A stretch of 64,000 nt of DNA from a virus. Lineage: Duplodnaviria; Caudoviricetes. Location of the stretch: the IMG/VR virus record IMGVR_UViG_3300021256_002629, positions 32,001 to 96,000 of that record. One strand, 5' to 3'. Below, in pieces: positions 33,001 through 36,000 of the stretch (positions within the stretch are counted from its first letter, which is position 1; each line of letters starts with the position of its first letter). The position numbers are program-made.

Positions 33001-36000
33001 CTTGTAAAAGTAGGTATTTTTTTTCTCCGTTTGAAGTCATATTAACGGACTTATATATGAAAGCGGATGAATTACATTTGCTAGATACCGTTAAACAGAT
33101 AGGGAGATATCTGTACCTATAGCCGAATAGGTTTGGTTGACTCTTGACAGTTGGCAATAAGTGAATTGTAATTTTACTGGCACTAGATAAAATCCTGAGC
33201 CAGCAGGTAACTTTATGTTTCAAATAAATAAAAGTTACGACTGCGTATGGGACGAAGAAATGTACTTTGTCTCCAGATATTCGGAAGACGGGTATAAAGG
33301 CAGCAGAACAACCGATAATACCTACGAAGACGGTGTATCTTATACCGACTGGTGTGTAGAGTCGGGATTTAATACGAGAGAAGAAGCTCAGGCGAGAGCA
33401 GAATTTCTCTCGTCAAAAAACAAAAACTAGGTCCTTACTAGTTTCCTGATGGGTTTTAGGGTAAGGAAAAAATATCTACTTGTAAAAAAGTAGGTATTTT
33501 TATTTTGCTTAAATCCCTTACATATGAATAAAATAGTAATTTATTATGAAAAAAGAGTTATTGTTATTTATTTTAAAGAGGGCTAGTTATCCAAGAGTAG
33601 TAAAGGTCTTAAAAATAGAAGACGCTACAATTCTACCTCAAGATGGAAAACGTAACAAAAAAGGGGGAAAGGGTTAATCCTTTTCTTCTTTTTTCTCCTT
33701 TTTTCTTATAAATGTAAAACTTAATAACTATAATATGAAGTGGAATAAATCAACCGGTTACGTCGCTAGAGTAACTGCTGAAACTACACTTAAAAAATTT
33801 CTTAATCTTTCCACACTTGATTATTATGTTGATACAGAAGAAAAGTTTATCCCTTACTATACTTATGTAATGGAGTATATAAATGAAAAGCTTGTTCTTT
33901 TGGGGGAAACTGATATTAAGCTAAAGATAGATGAAATACATAAGATCTTTTCTTATGGAGCTGAAAAAATAGCTGCTGATGCCACGTTAGATTTAGTAAG
34001 AGCAGTAGGTATTGAAACTGACACAATTGAAGAAGATGCAAACAATATAGTTTTTAATAAAGATAGATTTGTTTTTGCATGGACTAATTTTCTAACTTGT
34101 CTTTATATGAGAATCAAGTTTCAATATGCTAACTTATTTGTTGAGGCTTATGATGGAGAATGTTGTAAGTGTGGTGCTAAAGGTCAGACTGTAAGTGACT
34201 ATGAATCTTGGAGTTCTAAAGTATTTCTTCATGATGAACTCTATGATAGAAGTAATTTTGAGGGAGATAGATCAAATTCAGCCTGGGGAACTCGGGCAAA
34301 TAGGTACTGTGATTGTTATAGACGAGAAAAATGATTCTATTTAGATTAAAGAGAAAGTTCTATAATGAAAAAGAAGCTAGCGAGGAAGAGAAGTTGGACC
34401 AATTGTATGAGGATTTTAAAAAGAAGGATTTTAAAAGGTCATTAAATAAAAAACTTTCTTCTGCTGGTATTGGAGCTGTTATTGGAGCTCCTGTAGGCTT
34501 TGGAGTTAGTAAGGCTTTGAAAAAGAGTGGCATTATTGGAGGCGGAATTGGAGCATTAAGTGGTTCAGCTGCTCTTTATAAGATTCAATCCAATAAACAG
34601 AATAAATTGTATAGACAGAATAAAGATGAGTTGAGGAGTATTTTGTCTGGTTTTAAAACTAAAGAGGAAAAAGATAAATTCTTAGAAGTTTTAAAGGATG
34701 AATTAAATACTTCTACGACGTAATAAACGTGAAAATTGCAGATATATCACAGGTTTAATAGCTGGGATTCAATTGATGAAAATTCTAAAACAGTACTATA
34801 AAATTATATAATAGTACTGTTTTTTTCAAATTAAAGTGGATTCTGCATTAAAAAATTTCCGTCTGTATTCTCCCTACTTGCCTTATATATGATGGATGAT
34901 GGAAAACCGTCACCACCACTATTTTGGTTTTCATGATTTTTATTTAAATTAAATTTCCCGGACTGTCTGTGAAGATCGTCCGGTTTTATTTTTTTTTCGC
35001 TTGTAATGGGAAATTTTACATTAAAAAATTTCCGTCTGTATTCTCTCTACTTGCCTTATATATGAATAAAATAAATTGATGTTTTTGCATTTTTTATATG
35101 TTTTCCGGACTGTCTGTGAAGATCGTCCGGTTTATTTTTTTTGCTTGTAATGGAAAATTTTACATTAAAAATTCCATCCATATTTCCTACTCCCCTTATG
35201 TATGGGCATTTTTTGATTATAAATTTATATACTTTTGGTTATCATTTCTGGACTTGTCTGTGAAGATCGTTCAGTTTATTTTTTTTTTATTTTTTCTCTT
35301 TTACTAAGAGACCTTTATCTTATATATGTGTTATATTAATATATTAATAAATTTAAAATTATTATGAAAGCAATTGCATCAAAAATTTTGTTAAAAGTTA
35401 CAAAAAAGTTTGATAATACCTGTATGCAAAAGGTTGGAACACTATTTTCTGTTCCTGTTGACCCTAAATTAGCCTACTGGGAAGCTACAGTAATTAGTGT
35501 TGGTGAAGAGGTTAAGGGAGTTAAAGAGAACGATACAGTGTTTATTTATCCAGATGCTGGTAAAGAGTTTGAGCATGAAGGCGAGAATTATCGTGTTATT
35601 ACTGCATCAGAGATTATTGTTGTTCTTTAAAATATATTTATTTATTAATTAAATTAACAAAGTTATGTCAGGAAAGATTATTAAGAAAGGTTCTGTATCA
35701 CAAGAAGAGATCATTAATGGAGTAATTAAGGCTGCAGATGCTATTAAAACTACTCTTGGACCTTCTGGAAGATGTGTAGCTATTAGTAATTCAACTATAG
35801 CACAGGATCCAGAGATTACTAGGGACGGAGCTACTGTTGCTAAGTCAATCTCATTCAATAATCAGGGGTTAAATATGGGTGCTGCACTTTTACGTAAGGC
35901 TGCATCACTGACTGAATCACAAGCAGGAGATGGAACTAGCACTACCTCAGTTCTTATTAAAGAGCTTTGCGAAAGAGGAAGATCTTTAGTAAAAAATGGA

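Follow-up and report, generated by a model that had tools for sequence, protein, structure and literature searches.

The window analysed here, a stretch of 64,000 nucleotides (nt) covering bases 32001-96000 of a 138.5-kb IMG/VR phage record, carries an array of three tandem units (A, B and C) immediately 5' of the chaperonin genes groES and groEL of a rumen jumbo phage. Our preferred explanation, which we hold tentatively, is that the array is a strain-variable row of small RNA (sRNA)-type cassettes without open reading frames (ORFs), built from a reusable promoter module and a standard terminator and reshuffled by recombination. The units probably make short AU-rich RNAs, and unit A is a reasonable candidate for a start-site blocker resembling FopS, an sRNA of Bacteroides thetaiotaomicron. 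A sequence-only reading had taken the whole array for a set of guide RNAs that silence translation initiation; the results did not support such a programmable silencing array.

Anatomy of the array

The anatomy was read directly, by inspection of the sequence and with a repeat finder, and the three units were present where the sequence-only reading had placed them. Each unit consists of the promoter motif CTTATATATG (34882-34891 in A, 35055-35064 in B and 35195-35204 in C), an AU-rich body (66, 40 and 44 nt, respectively; T content 41-55%), a GUGA-tipped hairpin (34958-34983, 35105-35130 and 35248-35274) and a T run. The hairpins are built from a 6-bp outer stem, a 1x1 internal loop (2-nt in unit C), a 4-bp inner stem GUCU/AGAU and a GUGA loop. 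The motif belongs to a promoter module of about 45 nt with a CCG box about 30 nt 5' of the transcription start (+1). The parts of the array are as follows.

34846-34891, + strand: promoter module of unit A (CCG box at 34859-34861; CTTATATATG at 34882-34891; predicted +1 at G 34891)
34891-34997, + strand: predicted RNA of unit A, about 105 nt (5' hairpin at 34894-34914; single-stranded U-rich body at 34917-34956; terminator hairpin and T run)
34924-34952, + strand: FopS-seed-like stretch of unit A (UUUUCAU, with CAT at 34932; the only start-like antisense context in the window array)
35018-35064, + strand: promoter module of unit B (repeat family D2; 94% identical to the unit A module)
35064-35142, + strand: predicted RNA of unit B, about 79 nt (leader start GAAUAAAAUAA, U-rich stretch, terminator hairpin at 35105-35130, T run)
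35158-35204, + strand: promoter module of unit C (CTTATGTATG at 35195-35204)
35204-35297, + strand: predicted RNA of unit C, about 85-90 nt (unstructured U-rich body, weaker terminator hairpin at 35248-35274, T run)
35319-35328, + strand: fourth promoter copy, driving groES and groEL (repeat family D4; without the CCG box)

The predicted unit A RNA folded with a minimum free energy of -28 kcal/mol (z = -2.9), and the fold of the whole unit C RNA gave z = -0.4. The 5' start of unit B, GAAUAAAAUAA, is a leader start that is also found on real phage mRNAs. Apart from a tRNA, the units of the array were the only ORF-less units shorter than 110 nt in the 138.5-kb record. The units are discrete and lack an ORF, none being consistent on either strand across units, strains and lineages. 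The minus-strand frames, which had been described as unconserved between units, did differ across the promoter between unit A and units B and C, but B and C share one frame. Two more promoter-led stretches without an ORF of at least 30 amino acids (aa), at window positions 5888-6330 (about 440 nt) and 31794-32069 (about 270 nt), probably encode longer non-coding RNAs of this phage.

Constant frames surround unrelated bodies

The nearest related lineage, L053 (a 301-kb contig), has one unit 5' of groES and a second array of six units (L053:1526-2260) between a 659-aa gene and a 199-aa gene, a slot that holds small ORFs and structured RNAs in the window's phage. We compared the frames and bodies of the units within each array. 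The pairwise identity of the promoter modules was 0.85 in the window array and 0.73 in the L053 array, and that of the terminator modules was 0.88 and 0.89, whereas the bodies reached 0.53 and 0.54 against 0.52 for a shuffled-body control in both. This observed contrast between frame and body indicates that the array is not a plain tandem duplication drifting evenly, and it bears out the division into a constant and a variable part that had been proposed, with frames 0.73-0.89 identical and bodies at shuffle level. Around saturated bodies, 9 of the 10 units of the two lineages have retained an intact TATG motif and all 10 have a paired hairpin, which argues that the units are kept expressible.

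The array varies among strains and related lineages

Strains were collected through exact-protein look-ups with GroES, and their divergence was 1-6% at fourfold sites. The number of units among these near-identical strains was observed to be 2, 3 or 4. Strains L004 and L005 carry four units (two diverged versions of A, then B and C), a 312-kb metagenome contig with the same locus carries three units identical to those of the window, and strain L012 carries two (A and C), with B absent and the motif of unit C mutated to TAGG. The loss of B looks like the outcome expected from unequal crossing-over between near-identical frames. The 5' hairpin of unit A stays paired despite a G-to-A change between strains, and the body of unit C showed no substitution among 5 haplotypes, L012 aside. 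The promoter spacer of unit C (window 35172-35194; L007, L009, L010 and L012) has five variable pyrimidine sites in 12 nt among strains that are only 1-2.5% apart overall, and the adjoining transcribed body has none; this pattern resembles a short tract of gene conversion with another promoter copy as the donor.

Five other lineages, with gene order as in the window, were found through GroEL homologues at 64-68% identity. In L053, the groES-proximal unit contains no CAT and is not U-rich, and the first bases of four L053 units, like those of unit B, are GAAUAAA, a frequent start of mRNA leaders, or a near match to it. The array slots are filled by different cargo, for example small-gene cassettes, in other strains and lineages. 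The design recurs, but it is lineage-specific, polymorphic and non-essential. Neither the hairpin nor the 5' end of unit A had a match in IMG/VR viral contigs, and no match was obtained by megablast against phage genomes or by a GroEL protein pattern scan of viral contigs.

The conserved hairpin is a generic terminator

The conserved hairpin had been read as a dedicated sRNA scaffold, which was not borne out. The same hairpin tip, on another outer stem, terminates a 128-aa protein gene in L053, and the same tip terminates groEL in L055, L056 and L057. Hairpins of this type stand 14-57 nt after protein-gene stop codons in L053, L055 and L057, and in an unrelated 164-kb phage the tip lies behind several protein genes. 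The tip also sits on terminator-like hairpins of Bacteroidaceae: a pattern scan of species genomes found it with a T run and other outer stems in rumen Prevotella sp. tf2-5 and in a goat-rumen Bacteroidaceae metagenome-assembled genome, and the 13-mer tip had 28 matches in 401 Bacteroidaceae genomes compared to 4 for its reversed control, about 16 of the matches being hairpins of 10-16 bp. Across 25 such hairpins, the outer stem showed strong covariation, with 62 double-change cells compared to 20.2 in shuffles, a value reached by none of 500 shuffles; the invariance of the tip in this set is partly due to how the hairpins were found. These results indicate that the array hairpin is an ordinary intrinsic (Rho-independent) terminator that is reused on protein genes.

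The 12-13-nt tip (GUCU-GNGA-AGAU-C) lies at window positions 34965-34977, 35112-35124 and 35256-35268, and it was also found on differing outer stems at L019, L022, L024, L028-L052 and L068-L073, which include several unrelated AT-rich phages. Its recurrence could mean that the tip is favoured for its stability or that it serves as a module bound by proteins.

The promoter motif points to a phage-encoded polymerase

The motif CTTATATATG had 37 matches in the window compared to 10.8 expected, and across the whole record it occurred 57 times on the + strand and 8 times on the - strand, usually 20-36 nt 5' of an ATG. The genome is laid out as many one-gene transcription units, each behind this motif or a one-mismatch variant. 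The motif ends in TATG, like the late promoters of phiKZ, in which TATG has its G as the transcription start (PMC4666361), and its last G is also the first base (40146) of a tRNA. Because the last G is base 1 of the tRNA and the phiKZ promoters follow the TATG rule, the motif most likely serves the polymerase of the phage itself as a promoter, with this G as +1. An Rpb2_6-domain protein of 1061 aa is encoded at window 54090-57275 (E = 6e-18), and this gene, together with the TATG-ending promoters, points to a phiKZ-like phage-encoded polymerase. A sigma-70 promoter scan gave 23 matches compared to 23.2 in shuffles, that is, no excess. The tRNA itself (window 40146-40217; Rfam match of 49.8 bits) was missed by ARAGORN, and the position of its first base suggests a transcript without a leader.

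Start-like antisense contexts occur in a minority of units

The antisense strings and CAT positions quoted in the sequence-only reading were correct. The three bodies contain 4 CAT triplets in 150 nt, compared to 1.3 expected at the genome non-coding rate (P = 0.04). Against dinucleotide-preserving shuffles, CAT was enriched neither in these bodies (4 vs 3.8 expected; P = 0.6) nor in a pool of both arrays (11 vs 9.2; P = 0.26), and 9 of the 10 units in both arrays bore a CAT compared to 6.6 expected (P = 0.07). Start-likeness was scored with a weight matrix made from this phage's own start regions. The antisense of the CAT at 34932 fell in the 98-99th percentile of non-coding antisense ATGs and the 60-74th of real starts, whereas the other three CATs fell in the 64-81st and the 12-22nd, respectively. 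Across both arrays, 4 of 11 antisense ATGs were start-like compared to 0.3 in shuffles, yet the signal was weaker when the CAT positions were ranked against the remaining positions within their own bodies (P = 0.018, rank test; mean rank within a unit, 0.63). On these two results, a minority of units truly resemble start sites, and in the others the resemblance is compositional. The earlier statement that the variable parts are antisense to start regions is therefore borne out in part: the antisense of unit A is start-like, but in the array as a whole CAT is not enriched over shuffles, and the CATs of B and C are ordinary.

The stretch at 34924-34952 of unit A matched the FopS 5' consensus (20 copies) at 22 of 30 positions (P = 0.018 vs shuffles, uncorrected). 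For all other units, likeness to the FopS R1/R1' seed (GUGUUUUUCAU...) gave P > 0.05.

Pairing to host start regions was assessed with RNAduplex on 310 kb of Prevotella sp. tf2-5 (209 start regions), taken in place of the true host, and each RNA's own shuffles served as the null. The FopS consensus, used as a positive control, gave z = -3.8 for mean pairing and a start-over-coding preference of z = -3.5. For mean pairing, z was -2.65 for unit A, -1.2 for unit B (preference z = +0.6) and -0.2 for unit C (preference z = -0.7). L053 units 1 and 2 gave z values of -1.9 and -2.5 for mean pairing with preferences of -1.7 and -1.9, L053 units 3, 5 and 6 ranged from -0.2 to -0.8 with preferences from -1.0 to +0.1, and L053 unit 4 gave +1.15 with a preference of +2.7. 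A modest excess of pairing to Prevotella start regions was thus seen for unit A of the window and units 1 and 2 of L053.

Interpretation and competing explanations

In the cassette explanation that we favour, the multisubunit RNA polymerase of the phage would probably start at the last G of the TATG-ending motif, pass 40-66 nt of AU-rich, ORF-less body and stop at the GNRA-tipped hairpin and U run, and the products would be three RNAs of about 80-105 nt. This layout, in which a U-rich and largely single-stranded body leads directly into a terminator, is shared by the Bacteroidota base-pairing sRNAs FopS and GibS. The UUUUCAU stretch of unit A could pair with A-rich start regions (AUGAAAA), and A is the sole plausible unit of this kind in the window; B and C, without start-site specificity, might act on other targets or simply be idle. 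The array would expand, contract and exchange bodies by unequal or ectopic recombination in the shared frames, as PeSL (promoter-early stem-loop) cassettes do in T4-type phages. We infer from the sequence that the units are transcribed, where their RNAs start and end, and any action in trans.

Several results weigh against this explanation. Four of the five other lineages have only a 95-126-nt spacer and no unit, so the units are not essential, and unit B is dispensable, being missing in L012. The FopS-like seed region of unit A carries a 9-nt indel between strains, and conservation of the bodies among strains is uninformative, because a divergence of 1-6% is too small for the purpose and adjoining regulatory DNA is equally conserved. 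The likeness of unit A to FopS would fail correction for the roughly 10 units tested, and the Rfam FopS model (gathering score 56 bits), which matched 40 of 41 Bacteroidaceae genomes, had no match in the array at E up to 10 or in the arrays of relatives at E up to 1. RNAduplex pairing to 163 phage start regions of the 138.5-kb record was no better than for shuffles or coding controls, with shuffles at least as good in 40 of 60 cases for A, 14 of 60 for B and 54 of 60 for C. On the Prevotella start regions, unit A had no start-over-coding preference (z = -0.2), and units B and C were indistinguishable from shuffles on both the phage and the Prevotella sets; the shuffle control that the sequence-only reading had itself put forward thus told against B and C for these targets and left A marginal. 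Its report that no matching target lies in the window extended to the 138.5-kb record, in which the longest exact antisense match was 12 nt, to the loci of relatives, in which no target was significant (best, 15 of 16 to the L057 groES start; E = 0.6), and to 101 Bacteroidaceae genomes, in which the 25-nt antisense of unit A at up to 3 mismatches had 3 matches, all with 3 mismatches, compared to 1 for the control.

The units may instead be idle by-products of recombination between terminator-promoter junction modules, as in PeSLs, with bodies that are leftover leader and trailer pieces and with stacked terminators that at most insulate the groES promoter against transcription from upstream. 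We consider this quite possible, a neutral or insulating by-product of cassette shuffling being nearly as likely as the sRNA reading. It would account for 2-4 copies among near-identical strains, the apparent loss of B by unequal crossing-over between identical frames, the four related lineages with the same synteny and no unit, the mRNA-leader-like starts (GAAUAAA or a close variant) of unit B and four L053 units, and the arrays' use of slots that hold small-gene cassettes in other strains; body similarity at the random level, the lack of a pairing signal in B and C and the PeSL precedent agree with it. It fits less well with 9 of 10 units having an intact TATG motif and all hairpins being paired, some through compensatory changes, around saturated bodies, which speaks for selection or constant renewal of expressed units. 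Moreover, if two flanking modules recombined homologously, a single module would remain rather than a pair enclosing a short body, and a subset of units has start-like antisense contexts above shuffles. The full guide model of the sequence-only reading, in which every unit is a constant-scaffold, variable-guide sRNA blocking initiation on a particular host or rival-phage start region, appears improbable. The constant frame with a variable body, CAT in 9 of 10 units compared to 6.6 expected (P = 0.07), 4 of 11 start-like antisense ATG contexts compared to 0.3 in shuffles, and the FopS/GibS mechanism as a precedent speak for it, but the CAT count is at the dinucleotide expectation, 7 of the 11 antisense contexts are ordinary, the L053 groES-adjacent unit has no CAT and the scaffold is a generic terminator. 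On phage and Prevotella starts, units B and C failed the shuffle test that the FopS control passed, 4 of 6 L053 units failed, and the 138.5-kb record, the relatives' loci and 101 Bacteroidaceae genomes yielded no target.

An action as a decoy or sponge, in which many short U-rich RNAs with a stable 3' hairpin titrate a host RNA-binding protein or nuclease (e.g. RbpB) and composition and dose matter rather than exact sequence, seems slightly less probable again than the guide model. Tandem strong promoters and a variable copy number would suit a dose effect, the bodies vary freely while U-richness is kept, a short U run stands 5' of the hairpin in most units, host terminators share the tip GUCUGUGAAGAU, as does the Rfam consensus of MasB, an sRNA of Bacteroides, and RbpB binds single-stranded parts of sRNAs. 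However, neither the tip nor such U-rich bodies have a known binding protein, the L053 groES-adjacent unit is not U-rich, and the idea is one of inference throughout. Least probable of all are tiny protein genes, either leaderless micro-ORFs on the plus strand or minus-strand ORFs such as one of 28 aa at 34848-34934. In unit A, the minus-strand ORF is open in the same frame in four versions, even across the 9-nt indel, and has a start-like context, and the plus-strand ORF starts MMDDGKPSPP in all versions, with its single substitution there synonymous. Nevertheless, the 3 substitutions found in the part of the minus-strand ORF that the versions have in common are all non-synonymous. The conservation of this ORF is explained by its overlap with the promoter, and there is no phage promoter motif in its orientation. 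In units B and C and in the L053 units, ORFs are consistent on neither strand, and the plus-strand ORF of unit B is frame-shifted in L005. Coding explanations were rejected on the inconsistency of ORFs between units, strains and lineages, and known-family explanations on the lack of an Rfam family match.

An extended form of the cassette explanation, which we think unlikely, is that rumen jumbo phages have in such arrays a library of FopS-like sRNAs that is transcribed by the phage polymerase and able to evolve, in which the frames would let recombination swap or invent seeds and some seeds (unit A; L053 units 1 and 2) would block A-rich host starts, such as those of SusC-type transporters, and so reprogram host translation. 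If expressed, the cassettes would rank among the first genes of sRNA type to be assigned to a jumbo phage of Bacteroidales that transcribes with its own polymerase, and a fixed promoter and terminator frame with a free body would offer a simple route to new phage small RNAs. The link to start-site blockers of the FopS type provides a concrete, testable hypothesis for one unit. A body that is U-rich and contains a CAT mimics an antisense start site largely through its composition, and the "scaffold" is a common terminator; guide-array readings in Bacteroidota phages should therefore face shuffle tests first.

Genomic setting

The phage record has 33% GC and is about 40% complete (CheckV). Its gene content includes GroES, GroEL, an AIPR protein, helicases and the RNA polymerase Rpb2-domain protein. 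The array is flanked by the following features.

34331-34723, + strand: upstream gene for a 130-aa Gly-zipper-like small protein (PF13441, E = 2.6e-4, below the cut-off)
34787-34829, + strand: that gene's own terminator, an AT-rich 18-bp inverted repeat (I1) with a T run
35364-37332, + strand: groES (88 aa) and groEL (555 aa), 3' of the array

The terminator of the 130-aa gene is a different hairpin from those of the array. The gene order 199 aa, about 125 aa, groES and groEL is syntenic across relatives. Directly 3' of groEL lies an AIPR (abortive-infection-type) gene (37450-39285), which is kept in the L053 lineage and not in L055 or L057; in its place, 3' of groEL, L055 has five tRNA genes (L055:6495-7694). 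Strains L004 and L005 encode a 546-aa TnpB/Cas12f-type protein (PF07282; L004:11037-12267 and L005:11036-12267) about 5 kb 3' of groES, where the window has other genes. A Pistol self-cleaving ribozyme lies at window 32423-32498 (Rfam RF02679, 50.8 bits vs a gathering score of 34.5), and a scan of the whole window against Rfam at gathering scores returned this ribozyme and one tRNA and nothing else. A replication origin at the array was considered and rejected, the GC skew showing no turn nearby.

Comparison with known systems

The sequence-only reading had stated that no such system was described, which is wrong for the host side: FopS and GibS, sRNAs of B. thetaiotaomicron and thus of the likely host clade, consist of a single-stranded 5' seed and a terminator and repress the translation of susC-type mRNAs by base-pairing next to their start codon (PMC11697453). 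The FopS family (RF04319; Ruttiger et al. 2025) has also been reported in a Caudovirales phage (PMC11697453). FopS RNAs are multicopy RNAs of about 70 nt in which a single-stranded 5' body leads directly into a Rho-independent terminator, and the units share this body-then-terminator build. The FopS seed contains UUUUUCAU, and unit A has UUUUCAU within its 22/30 matching stretch; this stretch is internal in unit A, however, whereas the FopS seed is the 5' single-stranded part, and unit A has an additional 5' hairpin. FopS copies share one seed, are dispersed and use a host sigma-ABfr promoter, whereas the array bodies are mutually unrelated, the units are tandem and their promoter is the phage TATG-type CTTATATATG with an upstream CCG box. 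The terminator tip of the units is unlike that of all 20 FopS copies examined.

That tip finds a counterpart in MasB (BTnc201, RF04177; Ryan et al. 2024, PMC10994844), whose first hairpin carries the same apical module, gUCUGUGAAGAu, in the Rfam consensus. Relaxed Rfam scans of the array and its relatives gave only weak matches to this hairpin tip, at 25.8-28.7 bits vs a gathering score of 105, with only the first-hairpin tip aligned. The tip is all that the units have in common with MasB, so they are not members of its family.

The PeSLs of T4-type phages (Arbiol et al. 2010), each a strong promoter with a terminator stem-loop, occur as repeated modules and drive the shuffling of modules among closely related strains (PMC2839356). 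They cluster in plastic regions near small genes of uncharacterised role, and recombination explains the insertions, deletions and replacements seen there (PMC2839356). The window array and L053 likewise have a repeated intergenic module of promoter and terminator stem-loop, and differences between close strains map to the modules (2, 3 or 4 units), with slot cargo differing between lineages. The promoters differ, being host sigma-70-type early promoters in PeSLs and the phage-specific TATG with +1 at G in the units, and PeSLs mostly flank ORFs, whereas here the modules stand back to back with a 30-66-nt non-coding body between them.

In the jumbo phages 201phi2-1 and phiKZ, ONT-cappable-seq revealed short units, intergenic or derived from 5'UTRs, with a terminator less than 250 nt after the start, which were annotated as sRNAs without an assigned function (PMC11512511). 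The likeness lies in short units that use a phage polymerase, in phages with their own multisubunit polymerases. Those sRNAs are single units of Pseudomonas phages with mapped transcripts, whereas the array described here is a polymorphic tandem set of predicted units in a Bacteroidales phage.

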